Positions 7,140-39,085 of a stretch of DNA of 64,000 nt are shown piece by piece. Every line of letters starts with the position of its first letter. Position 1 is the first letter of the stretch. Made by a program: the position numbers and the translations under genes. Under the pieces are notes generated by a model that did not search any database, was not told the DNA's origin, and worked only from the letters and a program-made list of their open reading frames with translations. Where the stretch lies: the NCBI GenBank assembly GCA_938074205.1, contig CALJES010000012.1, positions 278,840 to 342,839 on the forward strand, given 5' to 3'. Source of the DNA: an uncultured bacterium (GTDB lineage Bacteria; Armatimonadota; UBA5829).

Positions 7140-7237
7140 CTGGTAGCTTTAAACCTTTTTTGGCTATCTGTTACACTAACCGATACTCCTTAGCTCTTTA
7201 TCTGCAAATTTTTTCTTACAAGAGCCTAACAAACCCA

Positions 7238-7266
7238 TTGACACCTCACATGTGATGTGGTACACT
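7238..7266 (+). promoter_or_regulatory. Sigma70-like promoter upstream of nrdR (-35 TTGACA, 17-nt spacer, -10 TACACT) with a 10-bp palindrome TCACATGTGA in the spacer.
   Basis: I read it directly: ttgaca at 7238-7243, the spacer cctcacatgtgatgtgg, then tacact at 7261-7266. Confidence 0.4.
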
Positions 7267-7337
7267 ACCCCACGACGCTACACCTAGCGTTTTCAGCCCG
7301 ACGCTTGTAGGGTGCTAGAAGTCTATTAGGGCTCGAT

Positions 7338-7823: not shown

Positions 7824-7940
7824 GTTGACCGTTCACAACGGCTATGAGTTGCTGCGGTAGAAGTTTTTGCGCTTCGGAGGCGGAAAAATCTTCAACAAGA
7901 GTGGATTAAAGCAGATAGTATTGCTAGGAGGGCAGGTCAA

Positions 7941-10166: not shown

Positions 10167-10330
10167 GTCTGGCGAGCTGCTAAGCATGCCAGCGTATTTT
10201 GCAGGAGGCACGTCAAGAGGCAAGGATGCCGGGGGTCGGGGAAGGGATGCCCCGGCCGCCACTGAGCCGGCATCACAGGCATTCGATTTTGCTGGGAGTA
10301 CCAAAACTAAACTAACATGTATGTTCGAAA

Positions 10331-10363
10331 GGCCTAGAGACGCAAGTCTAGGCCTTTTGCTTT
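10331..10363. terminator. Intrinsic terminator between the convergent nrdJ and GH130 genes.
   Basis: The hairpin is GGCCTAGA-gacgcaag-TCTAGGCC, followed by TTTTGCTTT. An A/T run on the other side gives a weaker reverse-strand U-tract. Confidence 0.55.
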
Positions 10364-10370
10364 ACTGCAC

Positions 10371-11432: not shown

Positions 11433-11676
11433 AACGGTGCACCTCCGCTAATCAAACTTCGTACTATTGTTGAGTCGTTCCTGCTCGAACACATAAGAGT
11501 AAACTACTATCGCCGGGGTGTTGTCTAATAACCCGTCTGGTTTCAGTATCCCCTGAAGCGCTTTATGAGGGTTAGCTACCTTACCCAAACTCATGTTGTC
11601 CGTTTGGGCACAGTGACATTGTCTCATTGCAGATACTGTTGGGTAGAACTGCGCTGCAATACCAATTTGCCCCTAT

Positions 11677-11705
11677 TTGACAGTTGTACCGAGTGAAATT
11701 ATCAT
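11677..11705 (+). promoter_or_regulatory. Sigma70-like promoter for the symporter gene (TTGACA-N17-TATCAT).
   Basis: I read ttgaca at 11677-11682 and tatcat at 11700-11705, about 35 nt upstream of the TTG start. Confidence 0.4.
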
Positions 11706-11740
11706 TGAGCGCAGATTTTGTTGGCCGGAGGTTGCAGTAG

Positions 11741-13447: not shown

Positions 13448-13472
13448 GCATTTACTAAAGAGATACGAAAAC

Positions 13473-21731: not shown

Positions 21732-22211
21732 GTGGAAGGGCACAGCTTGATGACCGACGATACTCAAAACTTGGTCCGCGTCGTATTAGACACAAATGTG
21801 TTTGTTGCTGCTTATTGGGCACCGTCAAGTGCGTCAGCTCAACTTATCCAAGCTTGTAGAAAGGGACTAGCTCGCGCCCAGTACTCCACTGAGGTTCGAG
21901 AAGAAGTCGAACGCGTGTTGCGGGCCATCAAAGCTAGACCCCAATTCGTTTATTCACTTGAAGCATTCTGGTCTGCTGCTGAGAAAGTCCGTGCAGTCAG
22001 CGTAGGTTCTGTCCGGGTGCCTGACCCCGACGACCAAAAGTTCTTGGAAGCCGCGGTTGGCGGGGCGAGTGACCTTTTGGTAACAAACGACAACCACCTA
22101 CTAAGCTTGAAATCCGTAGGCCGAACCGAAATAGTGACGCCGTCGACAGCGATGAAGATTGTTTGCCAAATATATCGCGTAGGACCGAGCCATCCTATTG
22201 GTCATAGTTGA
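21732..22211 (+). CDS. PIN-domain protein (putative toxin-type PIN nuclease, TIGR00305-like).
   Basis: Motifs 'VVLDTNVFVAA' and 'PDPDDQKFLEAAVGGASDLLVTNDNHLL...IVTPS' are present. Confidence 0.55.
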   Translation: MEGHSLMTDDTQNLVRVVLDTNVFVAAYWAPSSASAQLIQACRKGLARAQYSTEVREEVERVLRAIKARPQFVYSLEAFWSAAEKVRAVSVGSVRVPDPDDQKFLEAAVGGASDLLVTNDNHLLSLKSVGRTEIVTPSTAMKIVCQIYRVGPSHPIGHS

Positions 22212-22266
22212 ATAGACGTTGAGAGATAATTAAACTTGTATAAATTATGGAACTGGCTCTACCCGA

Positions 22267-25200
22267 ATGTTCAAACGGAATAAAGTGGCGAAGAAAATGG
22301 GTGCTCCAGCATTTTCCAATCAAGAAACGACAAGACGATTCATAGATAACTGTATCAGCGCATTGGAAGACGAAATCCAAGCCGCTGAACACACCGGAGG
22401 TTCCAAAAGGACAGTCGCACTAGCTAACGGACGCTTTCAAAGAACGATTGATCGAACTCATATATACGTGTTTGTAGCATCTGATGGCATGCCGCCGTCC
22501 TACGAAGATGCTCCTGTGCAAATATTGGTTTCAGGACAGGAGATAGACGGATCTGTTGTAGGCATAGAGGAGTTTGAGGTGATAATTGCTCTCGAAGAAT
22601 ACGTGGGAATGTACGTAGCTACAGCAGAACTCGTCGTCGACCTAACGTTCATACTTGAGAAGCTCAGAGAGCTTTTGACTGAGCGGGCCTCTGCTTTAGA
22701 GGTCCACGATGTAACCCTGAAAGTCTTTGGATTTGGTCAGCCACGTATCTCTTTAAGTTCTGCAAAACACCTTTCTGCTGACGAATGTTACATGAACGAA
22801 GCCCAGAAGCACGCATTGGGCAAGTGTCTAGGCAGCGACTTCGTAATGGTTTGGGGACCTCCCGGTACAGGAAAAACGCACGTTTTGGCGAGGGTTCTCG
22901 GCGAGCAGATTTTGCAAGGACAGTCCATTGCTCTACTCTCGAACACTAACATCGCTGTAGACCAAGCGCTTGAGCAGCTACTTAAACTCTGTGAAAATAA
23001 CGAAAGACTCAAGTGTTTGAAAGACGAAGGAAAGATAATACGCTTGGGCACACCTCAATTGGAAAGCGTCTTATCCATTACTCTCGATAGGATGGCTGAA
23101 CGCATAGCGTCCCAATTGAAAGACGAACTAACAAGGCTAAAGCGGCGCCGGGATAGACGAACTAAACGCTTGGAACAAGTGAGGTCGAGGATTAAAAGGC
23201 TTAGGGAATTGCTGGAGTTACATCGTAGACTCAATGAAGTAGTGGACTCGGAAAAACGCATTGCCCACGAGCTGAAAAAAGTGTGCCACCAATACCACGT
23301 GCTTGCAGACGAGCTTCTTGCGCTAAATTTGCGACTGTCCGTCATCCAAAAAAGGCGCCGCCTGCTACGCCTGATATACAGGTCCAAACAGCGCCGCTTG
23401 GAGCAGCTCGTGACTCAAAAAGAAGAGGGTTGCAGAAAAATAAACGAGAATATGCGTAAGTTAACCGAAAAAGTCTTGGCTCACCGCGCTGAGGTCGAAA
23501 AACTTCGCCAACGGATGGCCACCTTGACAAATGGCGTAGTCGATCCAGCGAAATGGGAAACCTGTCTGGCTCGGCTTACAAGTCTTGAGACGAGGCTACA
23601 AAATGAGATGGCCATCTTCGCAGCGAGAATCCACGAGCTTGAAATCGCTCTCCAGACAGTTGAAGCAAGAATTCTTAACGAGGCTCTCCTTGTAGGGTGT
23701 ACCTGCGCTAAGAGCACCCTCGACGTTAATGTCAGTAGCCGTAGGTTTTCAACGGTGGCTGTAGATGAATCCAGTATGGTCTCCCTTCCGCAAACACTCT
23801 GGTGTACGAACTTGGCTAATAAAAGGTTCCTTTGTTTTGGGGACTTTCGCCAGTTGCCACCGATCACCTTGATCAAACCAGATTCTGGGCAGGAGTCATA
23901 TGAGATCATGCATAGTAGCATATTCGAAAGACATCGGTTGGGCGAGAGTTTACAGGACGCCCTTGGGGATCCGCGGGTAGCTTTGCTAAATGAACAATAT
24001 CGTATGAATCCAGAAATATGTGAGCTCGTGAACAAATGGATGTATGGGGGCCGCTTGATTACGGTACCTGGGACCGGCTGCGGAGCTATGCTGTCCCAGG
24101 ATCCACCTCTTGCACTGGTTGACACGTCGTTATTTGGTGCATGGAGCGACAAGAACGCGGATTTTTCGTGGTACAATTGGCACCACGCATTTGTGGTGCT
24201 GGAACTCGTGCGAGAATTGAGAAATGATTCAGGTGCCCAGGCAGATCAAGGTGCGCTAGTGCTGATACTTACGCCGTACCGCGCTCAGGTTCGCCTAATT
24301 CGAGCATTGCTGGAAGAAGCAGACCTTCAAGAGAACGCGAGAGTATCAACCGTCTGGGGTTGCCAAGGAACAGAAGCAAGCGTTGTCATATTTGATACCG
24401 TGTGTGCCCCTCCGTACAGCAAACCGGGACGATGGTTTCTGCATGAACCGGGGCCAGCGGACGGTGCCAGGTTAATTAACGTCGCCATAACAAGAGCCAA
24501 GGACAAGTTGTATATAGTGGGGCATAGGCAGCACCTTGTGCGGAGCTGCCCATCAACCGCGTTCATAAGGAAAATTCTGGATTGCTTAATCGCAAATGAC
24601 CATATTATCGATTCACGGGAAATCGCGAAAAACTTGATACCGGAAGAACCAGCCGACGATGGTGGCTTTCCTATTGGCGCATTTGGGACTGCCTCGTTCA
24701 AGTTGTTCGACCAAGAGACGTTTCTAGAGGCGTTTATAAGCGATCTTTGTCAACTTCCGCCAGGATCGCGGATAACCATCTTCCGGCCGTTCTTAAGTGG
24801 GGAATCCTTTGCACGTTGCAAGTCGCATTTTTGCACATTGCTCAAAAATGGCTGCAGCATCGAGCTATTTACACGAGATCGCTCTGCGCAGAACAGGGGC
24901 AGGCCACTCGACGCTGTCGATTCTATGATTGATGAGCTGGAAAGATTGGGGGCAAAGGTTGGGATAGATTCGTATCTGCGGGGCCAAAGATTCGAGCACC
25001 ACAAGTTGGCTTTTCTCGAGTACCCGCAGGAATCAGACCGAAGAAGCGAACCTGTTATCTGGATCGACAGCAAAAGGATTCTTGGTCACCGCTCTGGTTG
25101 GGAGACTATGCTGCGAATTCAGTCGCGCAATGTGTACAGCGTCTTTGCGAGTATCATCGGTTTAGAAGACCGGCGCAAGCACGTACCAGTACACGTTTTG

Positions 25201-25521
25201 ATAAGCAAACTGGAGAACACACTTCAGCGACAGCTGCAAGCAATTTGTCCTGTTCACAAATTACACATGAAGCTTCGTTTCTCGGTTAGAAGTAGTAAAA
25301 AGTCATTTTTTATGTGTTGTCCTACGTGGAGCAAAAGCAGATGTGACCAGAAGATGAATGTGTCGGTTGAAGAGCTTAACAAAGCTCTGGAGTTCATTCG
25401 GGCGACGTGCTTGGAACCCGGCTGCGACGCTCCGTTGGATGCAAGACGAGGTCGTGAAGGCATATACATAAGGTGCTCCGAAGGACACTATGTCCCCCTT
25501 ATTTCATACTTCCGTAGATAA
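22267..25521 (+). CDS. Upf1-like (DNA2/NAM7) SF1 helicase with a roughly 250-aa coiled-coil insertion and a roughly 330-aa C-terminal region with an HxK motif and a Cys/His cluster.
   Basis: Helicase motifs are I 'GPPGTGKT', II 'VAVDESSMV', III 'GDFRQLPPI', IV 'LNEQYRMNPEI', V 'ILTPYRAQV' and 'VWGCQGTEASVVIFD', and VI 'INVAITRAKDKLYIVG'. A heptad-rich Arg/Leu/Glu segment sits between motifs I and II. The C-terminal region contains 'FEHHKLAFLEY' and 'CCPTWSKSRC...CLEPGC...CSEGH'. Confidence 0.7.
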   Translation: MFKRNKVAKKMGAPAFSNQETTRRFIDNCISALEDEIQAAEHTGGSKRTVALANGRFQRTIDRTHIYVFVASDGMPPSYEDAPVQILVSGQEIDGSVVGIEEFEVIIALEEYVGMYVATAELVVDLTFILEKLRELLTERASALEVHDVTLKVFGFGQPRISLSSAKHLSADECYMNEAQKHALGKCLGSDFVMVWGPPGTGKTHVLARVLGEQILQGQSIALLSNTNIAVDQALEQLLKLCENNERLKCLKDEGKIIRLGTPQLESVLSITLDRMAERIASQLKDELTRLKRRRDRRTKRLEQVRSRIKRLRELLELHRRLNEVVDSEKRIAHELKKVCHQYHVLADELLALNLRLSVIQKRRRLLRLIYRSKQRRLEQLVTQKEEGCRKINENMRKLTEKVLAHRAEVEKLRQRMATLTNGVVDPAKWETCLARLTSLETRLQNEMAIFAARIHELEIALQTVEARILNEALLVGCTCAKSTLDVNVSSRRFSTVAVDESSMVSLPQTLWCTNLANKRFLCFGDFRQLPPITLIKPDSGQESYEIMHSSIFERHRLGESLQDALGDPRVALLNEQYRMNPEICELVNKWMYGGRLITVPGTGCGAMLSQDPPLALVDTSLFGAWSDKNADFSWYNWHHAFVVLELVRELRNDSGAQADQGALVLILTPYRAQVRLIRALLEEADLQENARVSTVWGCQGTEASVVIFDTVCAPPYSKPGRWFLHEPGPADGARLINVAITRAKDKLYIVGHRQHLVRSCPSTAFIRKILDCLIANDHIIDSREIAKNLIPEEPADDGGFPIGAFGTASFKLFDQETFLEAFISDLCQLPPGSRITIFRPFLSGESFARCKSHFCTLLKNGCSIELFTRDRSAQNRGRPLDAVDSMIDELERLGAKVGIDSYLRGQRFEHHKLAFLEYPQESDRRSEPVIWIDSKRILGHRSGWETMLRIQSRNVYSVFASIIGLEDRRKHVPVHVLISKLENTLQRQLQAICPVHKLHMKLRFSVRSSKKSFFMCCPTWSKSRCDQKMNVSVEELNKALEFIRATCLEPGCDAPLDARRGREGIYIRCSEGHYVPLISYFRR

Positions 25522-27526: not shown

Positions 27527-28099
27527 TCAGCTGCGTCGCTCTCTTACGGGCCCAAGGGATATGTCTATGTCATCAGTCAGAAGCTCAGAACCACTCTGTC
27601 GCGCCTGGATCTCACCGCGCCTAGAATCCTCAACTGTCAGCAGGATAGAGCGTGTTCCTAAAGGAAACGATTTTTGATTTCGGCGCGCCCAAGCCGCAGC
27701 ATCTTTGTTTACGGGGCTTGCCAAGTTGTAGCTTTTGTACTGGATCATATCGGCGATGTGAACAATGACATCTACCAAAGTAACACCAGGAGACCAGTAA
27801 TCGCCTATGCAGACGTAATCTCCTATGTTCGGGTGCCATATCGGGGTGCGCATCGTGCATCTTGGACCCTGCCTCGGGTAACCGGTCGACAGTACTATAT
27901 CCACAACGTGCTTCTCTGACACCACAGCTCTACTCGATGCCTCATCCCAAACAAGTCCCGTCAGCCTGTAAGTAACTCGGTAATACCAAGGCGGGTTACC
28001 CTGAATCGGTTCTACACACACAAACTCGTTGCCGGAAAGTTCCGATAAGATCTTTTCGTATTCGCGACGCAGACGCCTTGTCCGAATTGTCTCGCTCAC
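27527..28099 (-). CDS. Prokaryotic ubiquitin-conjugating enzyme (E2/UBC fold) homolog.
   Basis: The UBC signature is 'RLRREYEKI...YPRQGPRCTMRTPIWHPNIGDYVCIGDYWSPGVTL'. This gives the HPN motif, a candidate catalytic Cys 7 residues later, and WSP. Confidence 0.75.
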   Translation of the reverse strand: MSETIRTRRLRREYEKILSELSGNEFVCVEPIQGNPPWYYRVTYRLTGLVWDEASSRAVVSEKHVVDIVLSTGYPRQGPRCTMRTPIWHPNIGDYVCIGDYWSPGVTLVDVIVHIADMIQYKSYNLASPVNKDAAAWARRNQKSFPLGTRSILLTVEDSRRGEIQARQSGSELLTDDIDISLGPVRERRS

Positions 28100-28114: not shown

Positions 28115-29536
28115 TCACTTTGGCTTTCCCAGACTTGCGCAGATACGCTTGACCTTCCGCCGGTCGCTTTCAGACAGCGCATGGAAAAGTCTGTCATACG
28201 GCTCTTCGCGACAGATCACTCCGTAAGCTATCTCCCGACTTCGTTCACCGCGTAGCCACCGAACAGCTTTCTCATGCCAAGCGTTCGAACCATGCTCGTC
28301 ATGAACAGCTACGCTTAGCTTCAGCGACCGCACAATGTCCCTTACGCGGCAGGCTCTCTCGATCCGCTTCTCACGGCTTGCAGCCGCCCGCTTGTAGACT
28401 TGGAGGGCTTGTTTAACGTAGTCCGGCGAGGCTACAATAATATCAGGTCGACGACTATTGGATGTGAATGAGCTTTCTATGTCTTTCACCAGCGACGGTT
28501 CCTGCGCCCGCGGTAGCTGCCGGGCGAGACGCGCCGCTGCAGCTAACTGCAAGTTGATTCTATCGAGCTTTTCACCCTCTTCGTTGCCAATTTCGCTATC
28601 GGACAGCGCCGCGCTTACACGCTGAAACTCCAAAAACGCTTGTCGGTTTTCCGGGTTAGCTGAAAGTTCGAGCCTAAGCAACCTCTCACCGCCTGTAAGA
28701 TCACCTATCGAAAGCATTTCAATAGCGGTTTCCAGGTACGTAGTAGGATGTGTTGCCTGCCTCCCGCGGAAAACGACAAGCCACAAAGCGATCTGCGAAG
28801 CCGCCAATAGTATAATTAGTGACCAGATAATCCCAGGAACTCTACCGACGTTAAGGCGATTATTCATTTGTGCTGGTCCTCTAGCCGTGACCGTGGAATG
28901 ATCTGACGTTGCAGATAGCTCCCTCATACATTCCCGCAGTGCTTCTTCATTGCTGCGTGGGGCGAATACATAGAATCCGGAAATGCGTACAAGAGACTCC
29001 TGCGACCACTCAAAAATAGCCCATTCGCCCAACTTGGAGTCGACAACCATCGCTATCTGGTAGGAATCAGCGAAGTAGTGCTGGTGAATGAATTCGTCTT
29101 CCTTGGAAAGAAACGCTCCTAGCCCTGGGTGGCTGTGATACCAACCAACGATTCTCTCGCGTGAGTACCGCTGGGCAAGCTGCGCGTGCACCTGCTCCCA
29201 AGCCTCGTGGGTGAAAGTGAGCGATATACCGGTGCTTTCGGCCATCTCTGCTCGGATAATGTCGTTGACCTGAATAAAGTAACCCCTGCCAAACTTGCAG
29301 AACTCGCCTACCAACACTCCGCCGAGCTCACGCTCCGGATCTGCGAGAAGATGTTCCCTAATTGCCCGGACAGCTTGTTCACTGATGAAAACGGGATACA
29401 AATCATCGGCCGGCTGACCGCACGCGCAAACTCTCATCGCCCTGTTTTCAAGTGGGCTCTTTCTTTTGACGGCAGATAAGCGAGTTGACCTGCCTAGCTC
29501 CAGTTGTATGTCGTCGTTCTCTTCTTCGCGCTGCAT
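28115..29536 (-). CDS. JAB/JAMM (MPN+) metallo-isopeptidase with a TM helix and a roughly 220-aa C-terminal extension.
   Basis: JAMM motifs are 'ELGGVLVGE', 'HSHP' and 'SKED'. The predicted TM is 'VPGIIWSLIILLAASQIALWLVVF'. Confidence 0.75.
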   Translation of the reverse strand: MQREEENDDIQLELGRSTRLSAVKRKSPLENRAMRVCACGQPADDLYPVFISEQAVRAIREHLLADPERELGGVLVGEFCKFGRGYFIQVNDIIRAEMAESTGISLTFTHEAWEQVHAQLAQRYSRERIVGWYHSHPGLGAFLSKEDEFIHQHYFADSYQIAMVVDSKLGEWAIFEWSQESLVRISGFYVFAPRSNEEALRECMRELSATSDHSTVTARGPAQMNNRLNVGRVPGIIWSLIILLAASQIALWLVVFRGRQATHPTTYLETAIEMLSIGDLTGGERLLRLELSANPENRQAFLEFQRVSAALSDSEIGNEEGEKLDRINLQLAAAARLARQLPRAQEPSLVKDIESSFTSNSRRPDIIVASPDYVKQALQVYKRAAASREKRIERACRVRDIVRSLKLSVAVHDEHGSNAWHEKAVRWLRGERSREIAYGVICREEPYDRLFHALSESDRRKVKRICASLGKPK

Positions 29537-29554: not shown

Positions 29555-30061
29555 TCAGATCACAAGCCGGATCAAGAAGACGATCCCGCTTGAGCTGATA
29601 CTGAAGAGCACAACCGCTGGTCCAAAGCAGTTTTCGAAAAAGCGGTTTTCCCTAGCTGTGAAACGACAGTGCACACAAATGATCTGATTCTGCTTCACCG
29701 GTCTTCCGCACTTTATGCACCGCAGAGGCTGATCACTTTCGTCTGTCAGGTCTGTAGGCGCAATGACAATACGGCCCTCTGCAGTAGGCGAAATGCGATC
29801 AGAGATCTGCCGGTTCCATATTGCCCAACCGTCGCAGCCGTATACAGAGCAGCGGCCGTTGGACTTCCAGCACTCAGCATGATGCATTACGCCGCACTTG
29901 GGACAGCGTATCGCTTCTTCTTTCGATTCGATCGGACTTAGACAGTATGGGCAGTTCAGGCTTTCGTTTGTTGATCTCACCTTTCCACTCGATCGAACGC
30001 TTTGGGTAGTTGGTCTATGGTATCGAGGCTGCCGGTAGGAACCGCCGCCACTATCAGCCAA
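29555..30061 (-). CDS. Membrane-anchored C4HC3 RING-variant-like zinc-finger protein (paralog 2), with a second CxxC...CxxC ribbon and a C-terminal TM.
   Basis: Cys/His spacing is 'CPYC..(13)..CPKCGVMHHAECWKSNGRCSVYGC', then 'CIKCGRPVKQNQIICVHC', then the hydrophobic tail 'AVVLFSISSSGIVFLIRLVI'. The 5' end overlaps the upstream paralog by 85 nt, so the true start may be internal or non-ATG. Confidence 0.5.
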   Translation of the reverse strand: MADSGGGSYRQPRYHRPTTQSVRSSGKVRSTNESLNCPYCLSPIESKEEAIRCPKCGVMHHAECWKSNGRCSVYGCDGWAIWNRQISDRISPTAEGRIVIAPTDLTDESDQPLRCIKCGRPVKQNQIICVHCRFTARENRFFENCFGPAVVLFSISSSGIVFLIRLVI

Positions 30062-30459
30062 GCTAACAGAACTGCTGAGACGAGCAACATAATCAGTATA
30101 GGTCCCACGTTCTTTGCGTCCTGGTGTTCTAGGATAGATGTGGGCCTACACGTATTGCAGTAGAGTTCCCCTGGAGGAACCTGCTTCCCGCAGTGCACAC
30201 ACGGGTTGGAAACGCTCATCGCTTTTCTGTTACTTGCAGATTCGACTGCCTCACGCGTTAGAAGGAGTCTACTCCTTGCCGGTGGTGTATCGAAGTTGAT
30301 TTCGATTATCCGTCTTGCTTTGGGACATTCCTTTGCACAGCAGCCGCGGTGCTCTTCCCAACAATCGAAGTGATACACCGAGCCGCATGCGTCGCAGGTC
30401 ACAGTTTTTTCCTGCAGGGCAATTTCGCTCATACAATAGCGACAACTTCTGTCTGCCAC
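29977..30459 (-). CDS. Membrane-anchored C4HC3 RING-variant-like zinc-finger protein (paralog 1).
   Basis: Cys/His spacing is 'CRYC..(12)..CDACGSVYHFDCWEEHRGCCAKEC', then 'CVHCGKQVPPGELYCNTC', then the TM 'ILIMLLVSAVLLAWLIVAAV'. Confidence 0.55.
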   Translation of the reverse strand: MADRSCRYCMSEIALQEKTVTCDACGSVYHFDCWEEHRGCCAKECPKARRIIEINFDTPPARSRLLLTREAVESASNRKAMSVSNPCVHCGKQVPPGELYCNTCRPTSILEHQDAKNVGPILIMLLVSAVLLAWLIVAAVPTGSLDTIDQLPKAFDRVER

Positions 30460-30509: not shown

Positions 30510-31721
30510 TTACGAACCCGGCAGTACGGATTTGGCATCTGATGATATCTCAATCTGCACGCAGCCTCTTTGCGATACCGCAGGAAGAATCTCCAATTGA
30601 CCAAAACCAAGCTCTTTTAGTGTGATATCTTCGTAGGGCGCGCCGCGCATATACTCGACATCTACTTCCGGCAGTCGCTCTGCGCCGCAGTCGGGACATC
30701 TTGCCTCTTCAGCGCGGATGCTATGTGCCAATCGGTAGAACGGTTGCGTGGAGCCACACCGATTGCACTTAAGTGATTTTACCATCTCAGAAGGTAGACC
30801 AATCACAGGGTTTGCACCCACGTAACGTGTTGCGAGATCCGCAACCTCAGCCAGCGTTGCTGATTCGCTGTTGAGCTGGGTTTCTACGATGTTTTCGAAC
30901 AACTCGTGGCTCATGCAGTCTTCGTTTCTCACGTAGTCAATAATGAAGCAGTCGTAGGTTGTGGCGTCAAAGTAGAAAGCCTTCCCGACCAGGGTAGGGC
31001 TCAGCCTCTGTCCTGGCGTTTGCAGGCAGGAGCGCGAGTGCAAGAGCTTTACGGCTTCGTGTACCTGGATGCCGGCTATTATGGATGCCATTGTAGGCGT
31101 CGTAGGAGTCCTGTCTTGAATATGAGCTTGAGCTGCCAGGATACCGCACGACTCACGCCACGCCATAATTTTTCTGTCCTGTTCGCCGAGCGTACACTCG
31201 TAGCAAGGGGTATCTGGGGGCACGAAGCTGCGCACAATACCGCGAGTGTCATCGACCGCTCCATCTACCCAGGGTGTGCCAACCTTCCAGCAAGCTCGGT
31301 TGATTGCAAGCCGCGCCTCACGGTTATCCAGTCCGCCGATCACGACATCCACGCGCCTGAAAATGCCAAGACCGATGTCCCTAGTTACATCAGCCTCCAG
31401 GCCGATGAACCGGCAGTCAGGATTCAGCGCCTCAGCTGCGCTCGCCGCTACTTGGGCTTTGGGCTTGCCTTCGTCTTGGGCTCTGAATAATGGACTTCGC
31501 GAAAGGTTGGAGAGCTCAACACGATCGAAGTCGACTATGATCACCGTCCCTGCGCCCAATAGTGCAAGGTTCTTTATTATCTCATTGCCAAGCGCACCGG
31601 CTCCAACGACCATGATTGATGCGGCGCGTAGGACGTCTTGGTTCCACCAGGAGATCAAGCGTAAACGCCAATATCGATCTTCTCCGATGTCAATCGGGAA
31701 GTGGGATTTCTCAGCAGACAC
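30510..31721 (-). CDS. E1-like adenylating enzyme (ThiF/MoeB/UBA family) with a C-terminal zinc-ribbon extension.
   Basis: The nucleotide-binding motif is 'VVGAGALGNEIIKNLALLGAGTVIIVDFDRVELSNLSRS'. CxxC is 'CYEC', and a later ribbon reads 'CNRCG...CPDCG'. The gene overlaps the Ubl gene by 11 nt. Confidence 0.8.
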   Translation of the reverse strand: MSAEKSHFPIDIGEDRYWRLRLISWWNQDVLRAASIMVVGAGALGNEIIKNLALLGAGTVIIVDFDRVELSNLSRSPLFRAQDEGKPKAQVAASAAEALNPDCRFIGLEADVTRDIGLGIFRRVDVVIGGLDNREARLAINRACWKVGTPWVDGAVDDTRGIVRSFVPPDTPCYECTLGEQDRKIMAWRESCGILAAQAHIQDRTPTTPTMASIIAGIQVHEAVKLLHSRSCLQTPGQRLSPTLVGKAFYFDATTYDCFIIDYVRNEDCMSHELFENIVETQLNSESATLAEVADLATRYVGANPVIGLPSEMVKSLKCNRCGSTQPFYRLAHSIRAEEARCPDCGAERLPEVDVEYMRGAPYEDITLKELGFGQLEILPAVSQRGCVQIEISSDAKSVLPGS

Positions 31722-31998
31722 AAAAGCACCCGCCTGCGGTGATCTCAGGTATTAGTCTGAGAACGTCCCCGTCTAGGACGTTGCATTCTGAAAGCGTGAG
31801 ATTGTCCAGCAAATGCCTGCCGGTTCCTTTGTGCAGGAGTTTGTAAGAAATCGGCGCGCCTGCGGTGTTGACCACTGGTAGGTAAAGAACCTCGACTAGT
31901 TTGTCAATAATTCTACTGATAGGCACGTCGTCTGGGAGCGTCGCATCTTGTTCTTTGCTTCCCGTTACGTCTATGATTGTGACGTTAACCTTACCCAT
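31711..31998 (-). CDS. Ubiquitin-like beta-grasp protein (95 aa) ending in ...AGG followed by a CFCVC tail.
   Basis: The beta-grasp pattern is 'KVNVTIIDVTGSKEQDATLPDDVPISRIIDKLVEVL...GDVLRLIPEITAGG'. A penultimate diglycine precedes a 5-residue Cys-rich extension. It is the first gene of the operon and overlaps E1. Confidence 0.6.
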   Translation of the reverse strand: MGKVNVTIIDVTGSKEQDATLPDDVPISRIIDKLVEVLYLPVVNTAGAPISYKLLHKGTGRHLLDNLTLSECNVLDGDVLRLIPEITAGGCFCVC

Positions 31999-32248: not shown

Positions 32249-34537
32249 ATGGAGAAACAGTCAATGCTCAAGGGAGTAGCACGCGCGGATGGGAGTGATT
32301 TCCCTGAAGACAGATACACTGCTATAGTGGCGCTATCGCATCTTTCTGAGAGGTTGGCTTCCGTAGAGTCGAAAAAGGCTTTCGTCATAGCTGCAGAAAC
32401 GGCCGCCACCTTGCTCCGAATGTCTTCTGTGCTCATATTTACAAAGGAAACCGACGGCCGGCTTGAGCTCCAGGCAGTGTATGCTGATTCGGCATCTGAA
32501 GAACTGGTCAGCGCATCGGGCAAAATAGCTCAGGAAGCGCTGAGTGTCAGCTCGCCGCTTTTGATTCCCAACACCGCGGCAACATCTTCTACTGCCGCGA
32601 AAATTATCCAGCGCAACGGGGTAGCGTCCTTGATATGTGTGCCAATGAGAATCGGCGGAACGGCATTGGGGGCGATCGTATGCCTTTCCGAGCAGGTCCG
32701 CAGTTTTTCACCGAGAGACATCGAACTCTTACACGTGATCGCATCTCATGCTGCCATAGCGGCGATGCGAACGAGAGCAGGCACCGAACGGCAGACACTA
32801 CCCAGCAGCGATGATCTTCTGGCGCTTGCGGACAGAAAGATTCGAGAGCTCTCGCTTCTCAACCAAATAAGCGAGGCAATGAACTCCACGTTGGAGCTCG
32901 ATGCGGTGCTCGACATCGCTTTGGAAGAATGCCTCGCGGCGATAGACGCCGACGCCGGCTCGCTGATGTTGATAAACGAGGATACGGGCAAGCTTGAGAT
33001 CGCGGCGTCGCGTGGTCTGCCGGAGGAACTGGTCGAGTCTACCTCGCAGGAGATCGGGCAGAGTATTGCCGGCTGGGTGGCTGAGCACGGTGAGAGCGTT
33101 CTCGTTACGGACGCACGCAATGACGACCGTTTTGAGATGCCATTCTATCGCGATGCCATCACTTCGTCCGCCTCGGTGCCGCTGAAGTCCAGAAACGGCT
33201 GCATTGGCGTGCTCAACGTTAACACTACGCGGCCTGATCGGATCTTCGACGAACGCGACCTCCAGTTTCTACAGACTATAGCAAACCAAATGGCTGCTGC
33301 TATCCAGAACGCCAGACTCTACACGCGCGTTCGCCGACGAACCCAACAACTCGACGGCTTGCTGAGGGTTTCGCGCAGCGTGACCTCCACGCTGAGCTTG
33401 GAAGATCGCTTGAAGCTCTTGAGCGAGGAAATGTGTAAGCTGCTGGAGTTTGATGTCTGCGTGATATTCCTAGTGGACGAAATTACAGGCAGGCTGCGGC
33501 ACGGAGTCGGCAGAGGGCTGAGAACGCGCTACAGATTCACCTACTATAACTTAGCAAATCCTCTGGCCCAGAAGGTTCTCAAAACGCGCAGAACGGTGTA
33601 TTTGAAGGATATCAATTCTTCGCCCACTGCGGCAAGCGATGTGTCGAAATCGGAGCGATTGACGTGTGCATTGGGACTGCCGCTGAGGAGCAATGGGAGG
33701 ATAGTAGCTGTTGCAACGCTTTTCGCTCGGGCTCCGCAAGAGCTACCACCGTCCAGACGTGCAGCATTGAAAATGCTAGCCGACTTGGCGGGCGTTGCCA
33801 TACACAACGCTTTGGCATATCAAAATAAGTATAGAGTGGCTTCATTGGTTCAAAGCAGGTTGGTACCCGCCGACGCCCCGACGGTTGACGGGCTCGAGAT
33901 AGGGCATAAGTTCTTCTCGGTGCGCGAGGTGGGCGGCGATTACTACGATTTCATTGTGCTTAATGATCGGCAGATCGGGATTGTAGTCGCCGATGTTTCG
34001 GGAAGCGATGTAGAAGCTGCCGAACACACCGCCATGAGCAGGCATGTTATACGTGCCTACGCACGGGAGTTTCCGCGTCCCGCTGATGTGCTCTATAAGA
34101 CGAACAACGTTATTTGCGAACTGACAAGTGCCGAGACGTTCGTAAGTGCATTCTACTGTGTAATCGACTTGGGTCGCGAGTGCTTCACGCACGCCAACGC
34201 CGGCTGTGAACCCCCGCTTCTCTACTGCGCAGCTCACGGAAACGTTCGGGACCTGCACACAAGCGGTGTTCTGCTCGGAGTAGCTGCAGGAATGCAATAC
34301 GCGGAGCAAGAGGTGTCCTTCAGATCTAAAGACGTTCTTGTCGCGTTCACCGACGGTGTAACTGAAGCATCCTGTGGTAATTCTCGTTTTGGAACGGACG
34401 CAGTGAAGCGCGTATTGTCGGCTAACGCTCATCTGGGTGCCCAGGCGATCGCGGACAAGCTCTTCGACGCTATTATGGAGTTTACCAACGGCAAGGTTTC
34501 CGATGACGTAGCGGTAGTCGTGGCAAAACGAGTGTAG
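32249..34537 (+). CDS. Multi-GAF-domain PP2C-type serine phosphatase (SpoIIE/RsbU family).
   Basis: The 762-aa product has 3 or more GAF-like segments. The C-terminal PP2C/SpoIIE domain carries 'GGDYYDF', 'VADVSG' and 'FTDGVTEA'. Confidence 0.75.
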   Translation: MEKQSMLKGVARADGSDFPEDRYTAIVALSHLSERLASVESKKAFVIAAETAATLLRMSSVLIFTKETDGRLELQAVYADSASEELVSASGKIAQEALSVSSPLLIPNTAATSSTAAKIIQRNGVASLICVPMRIGGTALGAIVCLSEQVRSFSPRDIELLHVIASHAAIAAMRTRAGTERQTLPSSDDLLALADRKIRELSLLNQISEAMNSTLELDAVLDIALEECLAAIDADAGSLMLINEDTGKLEIAASRGLPEELVESTSQEIGQSIAGWVAEHGESVLVTDARNDDRFEMPFYRDAITSSASVPLKSRNGCIGVLNVNTTRPDRIFDERDLQFLQTIANQMAAAIQNARLYTRVRRRTQQLDGLLRVSRSVTSTLSLEDRLKLLSEEMCKLLEFDVCVIFLVDEITGRLRHGVGRGLRTRYRFTYYNLANPLAQKVLKTRRTVYLKDINSSPTAASDVSKSERLTCALGLPLRSNGRIVAVATLFARAPQELPPSRRAALKMLADLAGVAIHNALAYQNKYRVASLVQSRLVPADAPTVDGLEIGHKFFSVREVGGDYYDFIVLNDRQIGIVVADVSGSDVEAAEHTAMSRHVIRAYAREFPRPADVLYKTNNVICELTSAETFVSAFYCVIDLGRECFTHANAGCEPPLLYCAAHGNVRDLHTSGVLLGVAAGMQYAEQEVSFRSKDVLVAFTDGVTEASCGNSRFGTDAVKRVLSANAHLGAQAIADKLFDAIMEFTNGKVSDDVAVVVAKRV

Positions 34538-34659
34538 TATTGAGGCTGCCACTCGCTTGGCAGTGAGTGTTACCCATAGAGCAGCGCGCAATACCTGCCA
34601 AAAATTAATAATGGATGTAAGGGGACGAGCACGTCCCTTAGTTTGAGGAGTGCAGTAGG

Positions 34660-35064
34660 TTGAGGCAAGGTGAGAGTATTCATTTGGAAATTCCCAGCTC
34701 ACCGGAGTACGTTGCTGTTGTCAGACGCGCTATTGAGGGAATCGCACAAAGAATGCATTTCAACGCAGCTCAGATTGAAGACTTGAAGGTAGCTGTAGGC
34801 GAAGCCTGCGCAAACGCGATTCTGCATGGGTGTCCGCGGTCTGAAGAAAACAATGTAGAAGTGCATTGTGAAGTACGCGCTGACGGTTTGCTTGTCGAAG
34901 TGAGAAACACCGTGGAAGGTCAATGCCGTCCGCACATACCAGCAAAGCCCGAGTTAAACCGCGAAGGAGGGCTGGGGCTCTATATCATTAACCAGCTTAT
35001 GGATGAAGTGCAGTTCACCTGGACCAACAGGACCGCAGTGCTACGTATGCTCAAGCGCCTGTGA
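34660..35064 (+). CDS. Anti-sigma regulatory factor/serine-protein kinase (RsbW/SpoIIAB-like, GHKL ATPase).
   Basis: The 134-aa HATPase_c domain has 'VGEACANAILHG' (N-box) and 'GGLGLYII' (G-box). Confidence 0.7.
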   Translation: MRQGESIHLEIPSSPEYVAVVRRAIEGIAQRMHFNAAQIEDLKVAVGEACANAILHGCPRSEENNVEVHCEVRADGLLVEVRNTVEGQCRPHIPAKPELNREGGLGLYIINQLMDEVQFTWTNRTAVLRMLKRL

Positions 35065-36477
35065 ATCTTTTGTTTCCGCTAGGATCTGGCGAGCCTTTTC
35101 GATCTGCCGTCTGACCTCCGCAGGAGCTGTTCCGCCATAGCAAGATCTACGATTCACACTGGAGTCCAGGGTTATCTCTTGTAAGGCGCTCGGTGCAGCA
35201 TTCGGCGCAAAGCGTCTTATTTCCTCGATCGAAAGGTTGGCAAGCTCCTTGCCGTTTTCTATACACCATGCCACCAGCTTGCCTACTTGCTCATGCGCTG
35301 TTCGGAAGGGAACTCCCTGGCGCACGAGATGCTCCGCCAGATCAGTCGCCGTGAGAAATCCTTGCAGTGCGGCTTGTCGCATTCGCTTGACGTTAAATCT
35401 AGCTGTACTGAGCATAAGCGCGAACGCCTGCACAGCGCCTGATACGGTATCCACGGTGTCGAACAGCGGTTCTTTATCCTCTTGCAGGTCCCTATTATAA
35501 GCCAAAGGCAGCCCCTTCTGCATACTCAAAAGGTTAACCGTGTTTCCTATCACCCTTGCGCACTTACCGCGAATGAGCTCTGCAACATCCGGGTTCTTCT
35601 TTTGAGGCATGAGCGATGAACCGGTTGCTACGGAGTCGTCTAGCTCTATGAAGCCGAATTCCTGTGTGTTCCAGACGATTATCTCTTCTGAAAAGCGTGA
35701 GAGGTGCGTCATCAAGATTGCGCAATCAGCTGCGAACTCGGCTGCAAAGTCCCTGTCTGAAACCGCGTCAATGCTGTTTTCGGATATGCTATCGAAACCA
35801 AGCTCACGTGCGACGAAATCGCGATCAATTGGCAGAGTAGTGCCAGCAAGGGCGCCAGAACCCAAGGGGCAGACGTTAACACGCTCAGCACAACTTGCCA
35901 ACCTTGCCTTGTCGCGCTCCAGCATCCAAAACCACGACATCAAGAGGTGCCCGAGGGTAATCGGCTGCGCATGCTGGAGATGTGTAAAGCCGGGCATTAT
36001 CGACTCCGCATGTTCCTGAGCTTTGTCAAGTATCACACTCTGCAAGTCTACCAGCGAGGAGAGAATGCCAGAGATCTGCTGTCTAAGGAAAAGCCTAATA
36101 TCTAAACAGACCTGATCGTTTCGGCTTCGGGCGGTGTGCAGCTTGCCGGCGGCCTCGCCGATTTTCTCAAAAAGGAGCCTTTCAACGTTCATATGAACGT
36201 CTTCAGCCGACGGATCAAACTCGACTTTCCCAGCCCTAGCATCTGCCAGGATGGCTTCTAATCCCTGAACGATTTTTTCTACTTCCTCTTGGCTTATAAT
36301 CCCGCACTTGCCGAGCATTTTCGCATGTGCGATTGACCCAGTTATGTCATGTTCTAGAAGACGGTAATCAAAACTGATGGACTGTGTAAACTGCTCCACC
36401 AGCTTGTCAGTTGACTTCGAAAACCGTCCGGACCAAGCCTTGCCTATCAACCCTGAGTTCTCCTTACGATCTGCCAC
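35041..36477 (-). CDS. argH: Argininosuccinate lyase.
   Basis: The fumarate-lyase signature 'GSSLMPQKKNPD' is present, with the N-terminal 'WSGRFSKSTD'. Confidence 0.9.
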   Translation of the reverse strand: MADRKENSGLIGKAWSGRFSKSTDKLVEQFTQSISFDYRLLEHDITGSIAHAKMLGKCGIISQEEVEKIVQGLEAILADARAGKVEFDPSAEDVHMNVERLLFEKIGEAAGKLHTARSRNDQVCLDIRLFLRQQISGILSSLVDLQSVILDKAQEHAESIMPGFTHLQHAQPITLGHLLMSWFWMLERDKARLASCAERVNVCPLGSGALAGTTLPIDRDFVARELGFDSISENSIDAVSDRDFAAEFAADCAILMTHLSRFSEEIIVWNTQEFGFIELDDSVATGSSLMPQKKNPDVAELIRGKCARVIGNTVNLLSMQKGLPLAYNRDLQEDKEPLFDTVDTVSGAVQAFALMLSTARFNVKRMRQAALQGFLTATDLAEHLVRQGVPFRTAHEQVGKLVAWCIENGKELANLSIEEIRRFAPNAAPSALQEITLDSSVNRRSCYGGTAPAEVRRQIEKARQILAETKDSQALEHT

Positions 36478-37643
36478 ATCCGCGCCTGCATCCCATGCGT
36501 TTTGACAATGCCTACGGCTTCAGACTGGTCAAACGTCTTTGAATCAAATGACGCTAAGTCCTCGTTGTAGAGGGCATATGGAGAACTGCGACCTATTACC
36601 GTGCAGCTGCCCTTATAGAGTCTAAGGTGAACGGTGCCCCTAACACGTGGCTGGATGTTGTTGATGAACGCTTCCAGGTCTTCCTTGAACGGGTCGTACC
36701 AAAGTCCCGCGTAAGCAAGCTCTCCCCATTTTTGATCGACCACTGCTTTGAAAGCCCTTTCTTCCTTAGTGCATACTAGAGCCTCCAGTGCTTGGTGGGC
36801 CGGAATAATCACCTTGGCTGCAGGGCATTCGTAGTTCTCTCGAACCTTTAGGCCGATTAGCCGGTCTTCCATAATGTCTATCCGGCCAACGCCGTTTGCC
36901 CCTGCTATCTTGTGAACCTCTTGAATCAATTCCAACCCAGGCATTTGTGAGCCGTTTAGAGCTACGGGCACGCCATTTTCAAACTCCAGGGTTATTTCCG
37001 TGGGAGTGTCCGGCGCCTTGCGTGGGTCAACCGTCCACTGGTAAATCTCCTCCGGCGGTGGAAAGTCCGGCTCTTCAAGCCGTCCGCCTTCTATAGATCT
37101 GCCCCAGAGGTTTTCGTCTATGGACCATATCTTCTCTTTAGATTGGCCTATAGGTATGCCTTTCTTTTGAGCGTACTCTATTTCCCAGCTTCGAGTGAGT
37201 GTTCTCTCGCGCATGGGTGCTATTATGGGAGTGTCGGGCATAAACGTGCGCATCACGAACTCGATTCTGAATTGGTCATTGCCCTTTCCCGTGCATCCGT
37301 GACAAAATGCATCAGCACCGATCTTCTGAGCAACCTCCACAGCTTTGAGCGCGATCAGCGGTCTGGCGATAGCCGTGCTTAATGGGTAGCCTTGGTAATC
37401 ACCGTTGGCTTTTATGGCTGGGAAGATGTAGTTTTCAACGAACTCCCGTTTCGCATCGATAGTGTAATGCTCGGTGCCCAGCAGCTTCGCCTTTTCTTCG
37501 GCTTGCTTGAGTTCCTCTGGCGGAAGTCCCACATCTACTGTGACAGTGACTACCCGCTCGAATCCGTAATCTTCCCGCATCATCGGTATGCAAACCGACG
37601 TATCAAGGCCTCCGGAGTACACCAAAACAACTGTTTTCGGCAT
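36447..37643 (-). CDS. argG: Argininosuccinate synthase.
   Basis: The N-terminus reads 'VVLVYSGGLDTSVCIPMM', and the body has the ArgG signature. Confidence 0.9.
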   Translation of the reverse strand: MPKTVVLVYSGGLDTSVCIPMMREDYGFERVVTVTVDVGLPPEELKQAEEKAKLLGTEHYTIDAKREFVENYIFPAIKANGDYQGYPLSTAIARPLIALKAVEVAQKIGADAFCHGCTGKGNDQFRIEFVMRTFMPDTPIIAPMRERTLTRSWEIEYAQKKGIPIGQSKEKIWSIDENLWGRSIEGGRLEEPDFPPPEEIYQWTVDPRKAPDTPTEITLEFENGVPVALNGSQMPGLELIQEVHKIAGANGVGRIDIMEDRLIGLKVRENYECPAAKVIIPAHQALEALVCTKEERAFKAVVDQKWGELAYAGLWYDPFKEDLEAFINNIQPRVRGTVHLRLYKGSCTVIGRSSPYALYNEDLASFDSKTFDQSEAVGIVKTHGMQARMWQIVRRTQG

Positions 37644-37678: not shown

Positions 37679-39085
37679 TTACGTTTGCGACAGGAGAACC
37701 ATAACAGCTTTCTGCACGTGCAGCCTGTTCTCAGCTTCATCGAACACTATGCTCTGCGGCGAATCGATAACATCATCCGTTACTTCGGACCCACGATGCG
37801 CCGGTAAGCAATGCATAAATACGGCATCCGGCTTCGCAAGCTTCATCAGCTCAGCATTGACCTGATATGGTGCAAAGATCTTTGCGCGTTCTTCAGCTTC
37901 GTATTCTTGTCCCATGCTTGCCCAGACGTCCGTGTATACAACATCCGCATCCGCAACTGCTTCTTTCGGATCTCGGATCACCTCGATTGTCGCGTTCGTT
38001 TCTGCTGCATCTTTACGAGCTTGTTCAACTATGTTAGTGTTGGGCTCGTAACCCTCCGGACAGGCTATGGTGAAATTTGTACCCACCTTTGCCGCAAGCA
38101 ACATCAAAGAGTGCGCTACGTTGTTACCGTCTCCCACAAAGACCACTTTAAGCCCCTGCAGAGTACCCTTTTTCTCGATAATTGTAAAGAAATCTGCCAG
38201 CGCTTGACACGGATGTTCGAGATCGGAAAGGCCGTTTATTACCGGAACACTCGCATGCTCGGCCAGCTCAACGACCGTGTTGTGCGCAAAAGTCCTCGCC
38301 ATTATGAGATCACACATTCGATCCAATGTGCGCGCCGCATCGGCTATGGACTCTCTCTTACCCAACTGAATATCGGAAGGCGCAAGATAGATCGCGTGCC
38401 CACCTAGTTGCGTCATTCCTGCTTCGAAAGACACCCGAGTGCGGAGGCTCGGCTTCTCAAATATCATCGCCAAGTTCTTCCCAGCTAGCAGCTGGCGCTG
38501 CTCTTCTGCTGGCACGTCACACTTGAGCCTGCGTGCCATATCGAAGACAGCCTCGATGTTTGAACGATCCAGCGAAGAAATGCTGATAAGGTCTTGGCCT
38601 GATAGTTTCTTTGATGGGTTACCAGCCACAAAATCCGACGAGGCCGTTCCCGCGTTTTGCTGCAGTTTGGCAACCGCATCTCTCGTTTTCTGGAGATCTA
38701 TGCCCATGGAGGCAAGAACCTTTGCAGCAATTCCTTCAGCTTCGCCAATCAGACCCAAAAGCAGGTGTTCCGTCCCGATAAAGTCGTTCATCATGCGCCG
38801 CGCCTCGTTATACGCAATGTCGATAGCACGCTTCGCACGCGGTGTGAGCTGTATATCTTCCCCCAGGCAAGACTCCCTATCTGCTATGTACTCTTCGATC
38901 TTCGAACGGACGTCGGCCGGATCCGCGGACATAGCTAGAAGCGCCCGACAAGCCAGACAGTTTTCGGCGCGTAGAATACCCAGCAGCAGGTGCTCTGTCG
39001 ACACGTGGCTCTCACCGTGTTTGCCGGCTTCCTCTGTGGCAAAGAATACTACCCGCCTTGCATCCTGAGTGAATCGCTGCCACAT
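37679..39085 (-). CDS. argF: Ornithine carbamoyltransferase fused to an N-terminal Clp_N (ClpA/ClpB N-domain) repeat domain.
   Basis: The C-terminal roughly 310 aa carry OTC motifs 'STRTRVSFE', 'HCLPA' and 'DVWASMG'. The N-terminal roughly 150 aa, 'RFTQDARRVVFFATEEAGKHGESHVSTEHLLLGILR...IGTEHLLLGLI', form a double Clp_N repeat. Confidence 0.8.
   Translation of the reverse strand: MWQRFTQDARRVVFFATEEAGKHGESHVSTEHLLLGILRAENCLACRALLAMSADPADVRSKIEEYIADRESCLGEDIQLTPRAKRAIDIAYNEARRMMNDFIGTEHLLLGLIGEAEGIAAKVLASMGIDLQKTRDAVAKLQQNAGTASSDFVAGNPSKKLSGQDLISISSLDRSNIEAVFDMARRLKCDVPAEEQRQLLAGKNLAMIFEKPSLRTRVSFEAGMTQLGGHAIYLAPSDIQLGKRESIADAARTLDRMCDLIMARTFAHNTVVELAEHASVPVINGLSDLEHPCQALADFFTIIEKKGTLQGLKVVFVGDGNNVAHSLMLLAAKVGTNFTIACPEGYEPNTNIVEQARKDAAETNATIEVIRDPKEAVADADVVYTDVWASMGQEYEAEERAKIFAPYQVNAELMKLAKPDAVFMHCLPAHRGSEVTDDVIDSPQSIVFDEAENRLHVQKAVMVLLSQT

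Follow-up and report, generated by a model that had tools for sequence, protein, structure and literature searches.

A membrane-anchored, Rpn11-like JAB with an orphan C-terminal domain in a bacterial RING-type ubiquitin-like operon

The gene at positions 28115–29536 on the minus strand of a 64,000-nucleotide stretch of DNA from an uncultured Armatimonadota bacterium (contig CALJES010000012.1; hereafter the window) encodes a 473-residue protein in which an Rpn11-like JAMM/MPN+ domain (hereafter JAB), a single predicted transmembrane (TM) helix and a large all-α C-terminal domain follow one another in one chain. It is the fifth gene of a six-gene operon that also encodes a ubiquitin-like protein (Ubl), an E1, two RING E3s and an E2. 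We propose, at a probability of about 0.6, that its product is a bitopic inner-membrane JAB, similar to a deubiquitinase (DUB), of a membrane-linked Ubl operon, with its outside domain binding or sensing a component of the cell envelope. An initial annotation, made from the sequence and leaving the strand unstated, had described a JAMM core, a TM helix and a large uncharacterised C-terminal domain in one gene, and Pfam, hydropathy and homologues agree with that description.

The open reading frame (ORF) runs uninterrupted through 473 codons from ATG to stop on the minus strand, as seen in the ORF list and its translation; the plus-strand frame across the same interval is interrupted by many stops. 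Among 5.8 billion protein clusters searched, about 35 homologues of 431–516 residues (one of 607) were found, mostly from Armatimonadota-type metagenome-assembled genomes. They are 32–64% identical to the query and cover 91–99% of it as a single protein, and two of them are annotated as Armatimonadota proteins. In the family alignment (A1, 34 sequences), the C-terminal part contains the invariant residues D325, R391, R394, A395 and E431 and the near-invariant positions N328, Y381, W420, A424, L428 and Y438, and its identity to the query when taken alone (26–63%, alignment A2) is on par with that of the whole protein. The uninterrupted frame, the full-length homologues and the invariant C-terminal residues rule out both a frameshift and a two-gene fusion. 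A missed frameshift or stop, which the initial annotation had named in advance as one finding that would overturn it, was thus looked for and excluded. The exception among related loci is L006 (~5682–7065), where a break within the MPN core divides the JAB gene into parts of 131 and 324 residues, through either a frameshift, an assembly error or decay to a pseudogene; of the GTDB species representatives, this genome is the only one to encode the orphan C-terminal domain. The parts of the window protein are as follows.

28115..29536, minus strand: whole gene for the JAB–TM–C-terminal domain protein, 473 residues (ORF translation, full-length homologues, alignment A1)
29393..29536, minus strand: N-terminal extension, residues 1–48 (alignment A1; predicted local distance difference test score, pLDDT, of the AlphaFold2 (AF2) model)
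28904..29392, minus strand: JAMM/MPN+ core and trailing helix, residues 49–211 (Pfam, invariant motif, Foldseek, phmmer)
28841..28903, minus strand: low-confidence, weakly conserved linker, residues 212–232 (pLDDT, variable columns in A1)
28766..28840, minus strand: single transmembrane helix, residues 233–257 (19-residue Kyte–Doolittle score, KD19; 34 of 34 homologues; AF2 helix 235–261)
28118..28765, minus strand: C-terminal all-α domain, residues 258–473, ten helices, apparent orphan fold (AF2, null searches)
28601..28750, minus strand: TPR-like helical hairpins opening the C-terminal domain, residues ~263–312 (TPR_14, profile search)

By profile, motif and fold, the catalytic domain is a bona fide member of the MPN+/JAMM family. 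Residues 49–154 match Prok-JAB (PF14464, E = 5.6e-11) and JAB (PF01398, E = 1.9e-10), with 42.8 bits against a Pfam gathering cut-off of 25 and 41.0 bits against 22.5, respectively. The JAMM motif, E-x(n)-H-x-H-x(7)-S-x(2)-D, is complete at E70, H134, H136, S144 and D147 and is invariant in the 34-sequence alignment. The full-length AF2 model, computed with the family alignment, has a mean pLDDT of 82.7, and its MPN core reaches about 85–96. Searched whole with Foldseek, this model retrieves Rpn11, CSN5 and the Caldiarchaeum Rpn11 homologue (CsRpn11) at E of about 1e-8, with TM-scores to target of 0.76–0.80 for isolated MPN structures; the match to Rpn11 5u4p_B has E = 7.8e-9 and a TM-score to target of 0.80. 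A phmmer search of PDB sequences likewise finds Rpn11/PSMD14 (1.6e-10) and CsRpn11 (5e-9). The domain is probably an active isopeptidase. Upstream of the MPN core, the N-terminal extension has its own invariant residues in A1 (E13, G15, P28 and P42, in a pattern 'D-F-x-I-E-L-G ... S-P-L'); residues 1–19 are predicted to be disordered, residues ~20–48 are ordered and packed on the core in the AF2 model, and the extension may be a docking motif for the E2, a RING protein or the Ubl.

The hydropathy profile peaks at residues 236–254 (GIIWSLIILLAASQIALWLVVF), with a 19-residue Kyte–Doolittle maximum of 2.33, and a scan of all 473 residues of the JAB gives no comparable second hydrophobic segment. 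An equivalent helix is present in 34 of 34 aligned members, with KD19 values of 2.1–2.8, which bears out the TM helix originally predicted. Within the helix, W238 is kept in 32 of 34 sequences and Q248 in 30 (with one Glu and one Asn in place of Gln), and position 252 is Gly or Ala in 23 of 34. A mid-membrane Q248 together with Gly/Ala at 252 resembles a polar helix-packing motif and suggests a partner within the membrane.

The orientation of the protein follows most probably from what its N-terminal part must do. The N-terminal 230 residues carry no signal peptide and have to act together with an ATP-dependent E1/E2 cascade in the cytoplasm; as the chain has only one TM helix, its C-terminal domain most likely lies on the other side of the membrane (N-in/C-out). 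Summed over the 34 proteins, the net charge of the 15 residues on the N-terminal side of the helix is +63, against +24 for the 15 residues on the C-terminal side. A control set of 18 LysM-type proteins gives +23 against −12, the same direction with a stronger contrast. Relatives within the clade carry a peptidoglycan-binding LysM domain at the same position, which supports an extracytoplasmic tail. Placed there, the C-terminal domain could not directly recognise Ubl conjugates in the cytoplasm; any substrate recognition by it would be of envelope components, and any regulation would act across the membrane.

The 216 residues that follow the helix correspond to the 'about 220' for which the initial annotation recognised no motif. 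Modelled alone, they form ten helices with a pLDDT of 86.9 and a predicted template-modelling score (pTM) of 0.79. In the full-length model (pTM 0.46) the linker at residues 213–232 is disordered (pLDDT <50), and the JAB and C-terminal domains have no mutual placement and no contact. Pfam has no above-threshold match to the C-terminal domain in the query or in 25 members, and NCBIfam has none. A profile search of PDB sequences with the domain gave a best E of 0.037, a chance-level match to SWR1/STING. A Foldseek comparison of this region had been proposed at the outset; run here on the model of residues 258–473, it found no significant neighbour in the PDB (best E = 0.26, TM-score ≤0.31) or in BFVD (best E = 0.48).

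We then searched 1.84 billion representative proteins exhaustively with HMMER, using the profile of the C-terminal domain, and obtained 37 matches at E ≤1e-3. About 25 of the 37 share the architecture of the query and carry the domain near residues 255–470. Short matches begin at the internal Met of 'MS[KR]EDEFIH', part of the JAMM motif, or within the TM helix and, judged from these start positions, appear to be truncated gene calls. The weak matches (E from 1e-7 to 6e-4) are mostly genuine multi-repeat TPR proteins that align to profile positions ~5–60 only, usually repeatedly, and TPR_14 matches 4 of the 25 members at E of about 0.005. On this evidence the first ~55 residues after the membrane look weakly TPR-like, and the remainder looks like an orphan family confined to this JAB; the domain as a whole appears to be an orphan and its family small and clade-restricted. 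It is not a TPR repeat protein: the query has no above-threshold TPR match, and Foldseek gives TM-scores of ≤0.24 to Pex5-type TPR structures. Homology to the post-TM parts of related JABs was also tested and rejected. With filters off, hmmsearch finds only L001–L003 and L006; hhalign gives a probability of 0.1% for the Pirellulaceae inter-TM loops and of 0.27% for the Planctomycetia tails, which had been tried for their look-alike motif 'W..E...(I/V)A.YG'. Pfam finds no LysM in the query or its family.

The six genes of the operon are co-directional and tightly spaced, and bring all five component types (Ubl, E1, E2, RING and JAB) together in one conserved cluster.

31711..31998, minus strand: Ubl, YukD-like β-grasp, 95 residues, first gene (Pfam YukD 3.8e-14, alignment A3)
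30510..31721, minus strand: E1, ThiF family, 403 residues (Pfam ThiF 1.2e-53, NCBIfam, Cys positions)
29977..30459, minus strand: RING E3 no. 1 (RING1), Prok-RING_1, zinc ribbon, TM helix and ~20-residue tail, 160 residues (Pfam, KD19 = 2.96)
29555..29980, minus strand: RING E3 no. 2 (RING2), Prok-RING_1, zinc ribbon and C-terminal TM helix, tail-anchored (Pfam, KD19 = 2.30)
28115..29536, minus strand: JAB, fifth gene (above-threshold Pfam matches)
27527..28099, minus strand: E2, UBC fold, 190 residues, last gene (Pfam UQ_con 1.8e-10)

The E1 gene overlaps the Ubl gene by 11 nucleotides, and its product has a C-terminal CxxC...CxxC zinc ribbon. The E2 has HPN at residues 89–91, followed by a Cys in YVCIG, and its best PDB sequence matches are eukaryotic E2s. 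The RING zinc ligands C6, C9, C22, C25, H30, C33, C40 and C45 are invariant in six aligned RINGs, which have four further Cys in the ribbon; in this subfamily of operons, a tail of ~20 residues follows the TM helix of RING1, and RING2 ends at the membrane. The RING2 GTG codon at 29980 overlaps the RING1 stop (GTGA, 29977–29980), an overlap of four nucleotides that is identical in L001 and L002, and the start is most likely this GTG rather than the upstream TTG at 30061 in the ORF list. The same six-gene order surrounds homologues whose JABs are 46% (L001) and 36% (L002/L003) identical to the query, and is also found in L006. The operon lies among housekeeping genes, including arg genes and a PBP4-type peptidase. 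L001 is flanked by the same argG, argH and GAF–SpoIIE genes as the window, and the flanks of L002/L003 are unrelated, with TatC and FeoB. No integrase or other mobile-element gene was found in the examined region of about 16.7–40.3 kb, and a scan of the operon for promoters and terminators gave counts that do not exceed those of shuffles. Divergent from the operon, at 32249–35064 on the plus strand, are genes for a triple-GAF SpoIIE/PP2C phosphatase and an RsbW-like HATPase_c_2 kinase of the partner-switching type, which are syntenic in L001 and not found beside L002.

The Ubl C-termini bear on what the JAB does. Throughout the operon class the Ubl has an invariant ...PEI[T/V]AG, with Ala-Gly instead of Gly-Gly. 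Among the Ubls of 76 loci, 37 end exactly at ...AG and 34 have a variable tail of 1–57 residues. The window Ubl continues from PEITAG into a Cys-rich tail, G-CFCVC, and that of L001 into G-VASVLPEISTND, such that the Cys-rich tail is not conserved even in the closest operon; the Ubls of L002/L003 are tail-less although their JABs have the same TM helix and C-terminal domain. Sister operons, those with tail-less Ubls included, all retain a JAB whose active site is intact, so that its conserved function very probably includes deconjugation. Trimming of a precursor would be needed in the window operon and dispensable in sister operons. A role beyond precursor processing, as the initial annotation had suggested, is accordingly likely, on the basis of the tail-less Ubls (37 of 76) and not of the extra domain from which it had been argued.

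Membrane anchoring is shared by the wider clade. In a scan of one genome per GTDB species, at least 566 genomes encode a JAB of this clade, mainly in Planctomycetota, Acidobacteriota, Armatimonadota, Solirubrobacterales and Ignavibacteria; cultured carriers include Lacipirellula limnantheis I41 and Patulibacter minatonensis DSM 18081. We called ORFs in 85 loci (L001–L085) and searched them with the six window proteins. Nearly all 85 are Ubl/E1/JAB/RING/E2 operons of somewhat variable gene order, with variants in about 75 beyond the loci of the same order. A hydrophobic helix follows the core in 72 of the 79 JAB ORFs of at least 250 residues, compared with 1 of 28 small second-copy JABs, and the RING proteins nearly always have one to four TM helices. 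A membrane-anchored JAB is therefore the norm for this operon class and not a peculiarity of the locus; what varies is the module after the helix. The orphan helical tail is found in the window family and L006 only. A coiled coil or Pro-rich segment with LysM takes its place in other Armatimonadota (L051, L055, L059), Ignavibacteria (L058), Lachnospiraceae (L073), the Solirubrobacterales-like, actinobacterial-type L005 and Bacteroidota-type proteins. In Pirellulaceae the tail is a ~170-residue coiled-coil loop closed by a second TM helix, and other JABs of the clade carry further, unassigned tails. From lineage to lineage, the type of RING protein changes together with the type of JAB tail. 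The contrast drawn in the initial annotation with small soluble JABs in other bacterial systems thus holds for CBASS (cyclic-oligonucleotide-based anti-phage signalling system) and Bil, and fails within the RING operon class itself.

Several of these loci depart from the six-gene plan. Pirellulaceae-type operons have two E2s and two JABs, one small and soluble (~180 residues) and the other of ~450–510 residues with two TM helices; two-JAB loci are L007, L009, L012–L015, L017, L021, L024, L026, L030, L033, L039, L042, L046, L048, L049, L056 and L063. In Ignavibacteria, L004 (7001–8473) and L058 consist of a JAB–TM–(coiled coil/LysM) gene and an adjacent UBC-type E2 only, with no Ubl, E1 or RING within flanks of 6–7 kb; from such gene content, the JAB–E2 pair appears to be the most persistent unit of the system. 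L005 has a larger operon (6212–14767) that encodes a Zn-ribbon protein, a JAB–TM–LysM protein, an E2, an FHA-like protein (Yop-YscD_cpl), a second E2-like protein, a trypsin-like protease, a YukD-Ubl, an E1, a second TM-JAB and a RING–DUF4234 protein.

RING-type prokaryotic Ubl-conjugation operons (Prok-RING_1, Prok-JAB) were reportedly predicted by Burroughs, Iyer and Aravind in 2011 (Mol Biosyst 7:2261). Operons of that type share the gene set of the window: a YukD-like Ubl, an E1, a UBC-like E2, a Prok-RING_1 E3 and a JAB. Our literature search, the coverage of which lay outside Burroughs 2011, found no experimental paper on the RING operon class or on membrane-anchored bacterial JABs, and no description of the specific C-terminal helical domain. 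Such operons are not mentioned by Grau-Bove 2015, and Chambers et al. 2023 describe RING-containing operons as still uncharacterised and predicted to be antiviral (bioRxiv 10.1101/2023.09.26.559546).

The closest studied analogue is the Caldiarchaeum operon, whose Rpn11 homologue is soluble (PMC5654768, PMC6043591). CsRpn11 (PDB 6FJU/6FNN) and Rpn11/PSMD14 are the best structural and sequence matches to the window JAB, sharing its MPN+/JAMM fold and having, like it, every residue of the E...HxH...S..D zinc site. CsRpn11 is encoded with Ub-like, E1, E2 and small RING genes (PMC6043591), and the window JAB is likewise expected both to process and to deconjugate. Unlike the window JAB, these proteins are soluble: CsRpn11 constructs span ~150–230 residues and Rpn11 adds helices for the lid bundle, whereas the window JAB adds a TM helix and a 216-residue domain. 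Their Ubl partners also end in GG, and the YukD-like window Ubl has an AG end. BilC (Bil) and Cap3 (type II CBASS) are likewise JAMM isopeptidases encoded beside E1, E2 and Ubl-like partners, and process or deconjugate Ubl-type C-termini, but they are small soluble proteins of defence operons without a RING E3 or TM helix; the Bil/Bub classification has no RING or TM components (PMC11601603). Membership of the window JAB among Cap3 or BilC proteins was considered and rejected, there being no CD-NTase, E1–E2 fusion or BilABCD neighbours and an NCBIfam cap2_3 score of 20.8 bits against a cut-off of 320. A further comparison is with the JAB–TM–LysM proteins (among them P0039, P0044 and P0050–P0053; L051, L055, L058, L059 and L073), which belong to the same clade and share the TM position and the adjacent UBC-type E2, but have a coiled coil or Pro-rich segment and LysM after the helix, with no detectable homology to the orphan domain.

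In the mechanism that we favour, the Ubl would be activated by the E1 and handed to the UBC-type E2, and the two RING E3s, each with a C-terminal TM anchor, would ligate it to targets on the inner side of the cytoplasmic membrane. The cytoplasmic, Rpn11-like JAMM domain would cut after ...PEITAG, here releasing the GCFCVC tail, and would also strip the Ubl from modified proteins. The TM helix would hold the JAB beside the RING E3s, possibly through its Gln-x3-Gly/Ala face, such that both reactions take place on membrane-proximal targets. The 216-residue helical domain would project outside as a lineage-specific replacement for the LysM and coiled-coil modules of other lineages; most likely it binds or senses an envelope component and thereby positions or gates the isopeptidase, which would give it a sensing or anchoring role.

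Several points weigh against this proposal. Net charge is positive on the C-terminal side of the helix as well, and the domain that follows is rich in Arg and Lys (+7 net, against −8 for the N-terminal part), which makes the positive-inside signal weak. The argument that an equivalent position means an equivalent compartment is one of analogy, as no homology was detected between the tails. A contact of the JAB with the RING proteins in the membrane would follow from a single feature, the conserved polar residue of the helix, and the C-terminal domain has no known ligand, partner or substrate. The same charges would fit a C-terminal domain that stays in the cytoplasm, with the helix docking only peripherally or not inserted. 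The domain would then bind the Ubl, the E2 or substrates, in the manner of the accessory domains of AMSH/BRCC36 or of the helices at the C-terminus of Rpn11/CSN5; substrate recognition is a role that the initial annotation had suggested. Eukaryotic JAMM enzymes do assemble into complexes through C-terminal helices, and an Arg nearly always stands directly after the JAB TM helix. Yet a ~22-residue helix with such hydropathy in every aligned member is a classical membrane span, its N-terminal flank is more positive than its C-terminal flank, in relatives the first helix is followed by LysM or by another TM helix, and AF2 predicts no contact between the JAB and C-terminal domains, with a far lower pTM for the full-length chain than for the domain alone. 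We regard this arrangement as quite unlikely.

Other alternatives agree with an outside domain and differ in its purpose. It might be the substrate receptor or scaffold of an envelope quality-control system akin to endoplasmic-reticulum-associated degradation (ERAD). It would then bind misfolded proteins of the periplasm or the membrane, or else the short tail that RING1 would extend into the periplasm, with the JAB editing tags in the cytoplasm. Its counterpart would be Hrd3/SEL1L, a lumenal Sel1/TPR protein that works with the membrane RING ligase Hrd1. The TPR-like character of the first ~55 residues, the joint encoding of three membrane-anchored components, the presence of a post-TM tail in RING1 and not in RING2, and the co-variation of RING types with tail types all speak for it; yet the resemblance to TPRs is weak and extends over only a quarter of the domain, Foldseek against the PDB gives no structural match to Sel1/Hrd3-type repeats, and no AAA+ retrotranslocase or protease is conserved beside the operon, which leaves such a receptor unlikely. 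Anti-phage defence of the Bil/CBASS kind, with the C-terminal domain sensing infection at the envelope, has in its favour that Bil and type II CBASS, which are published Ubl/E1/E2/JAB operons, serve in defence and that the uncharacterised RING operons share the antiviral prediction cited above. PADLOC, however, gives only weak, generic, domain-level matches to the window JAB (E at best 1e-7) and E1 and none to the Ubl, E2 or RINGs, and the locus has neither a CD-NTase nor an effector gene. The cluster also sits among housekeeping genes (arg, PBP4) in synteny with L001 and away from any integrase or mobile-element gene in the region examined, and the clade is broadly spread within phyla; a defence function is very improbable on these grounds.

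A more far-reaching form of our favoured proposal, which we hold to be doubtful, is that the protein is a one-component transmembrane signalling DUB: the outside domain would monitor the envelope, by way of peptidoglycan, a protein of the periplasm or misfolded cargo, and would turn cytoplasmic Ubl deconjugation on or off through a TM helix packed on the two RING E3s. If true, this would amount to a bacterial, ERAD/MARCH-like, membrane-centred Ubl regulation, with a housekeeping rather than antiviral purpose and interchangeable outside modules, widespread in Planctomycetota, Acidobacteriota, Armatimonadota and Solirubrobacterales.

Characterised bacterial Ubl systems (type II CBASS, Bil and Bub) are soluble anti-phage modules without RING E3s. 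The window locus belongs to the most eukaryote-like bacterial class, with an HPN UBC-type E2, RING E3s and an Rpn11-like DUB, a class that is experimentally unstudied according to the searchable literature. Three of its six proteins are membrane-anchored, and the module that its DUB probably carries outside (orphan helical, LysM or coiled coil) has been swapped between lineages, a pattern suggesting that the Ubl tags targets close to the membrane and that this tagging is linked to the envelope. This raises the questions of what a complete E1–E2–E3–DUB cascade does in free-living bacteria and whether membrane-linked, ubiquitin-type tagging existed before eukaryotes. The interest of the locus rests more on this membrane-centred, eukaryote-like Ubl system than on the C-terminal domain: the architecture is typical of the operon class, and the general importance of the orphan domain is limited unless a ligand is found.

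Elsewhere in the window, two loci stand apart from the Ubl operon. At 21732–25521 on the plus strand, a PIN_3 gene (21732–22211) is followed by a gene for a 1084-residue, Upf1-like SF1 helicase (AAA_11/AAA_12) with a C-terminal extension of ~330 residues that is Cys-rich near its end and has no Pfam match. At 37679–39085 on the minus strand, a Clp_N double repeat (residues ~1–145) is fused N-terminally to a complete ornithine/aspartate carbamoyltransferase (OTCace_N and OTCace), in an arg cluster with argG (36447–37643) and argH (35041–36477). This unusual fusion hints that a Clp-adaptor type of regulation acts on an enzyme of the arginine pathway.

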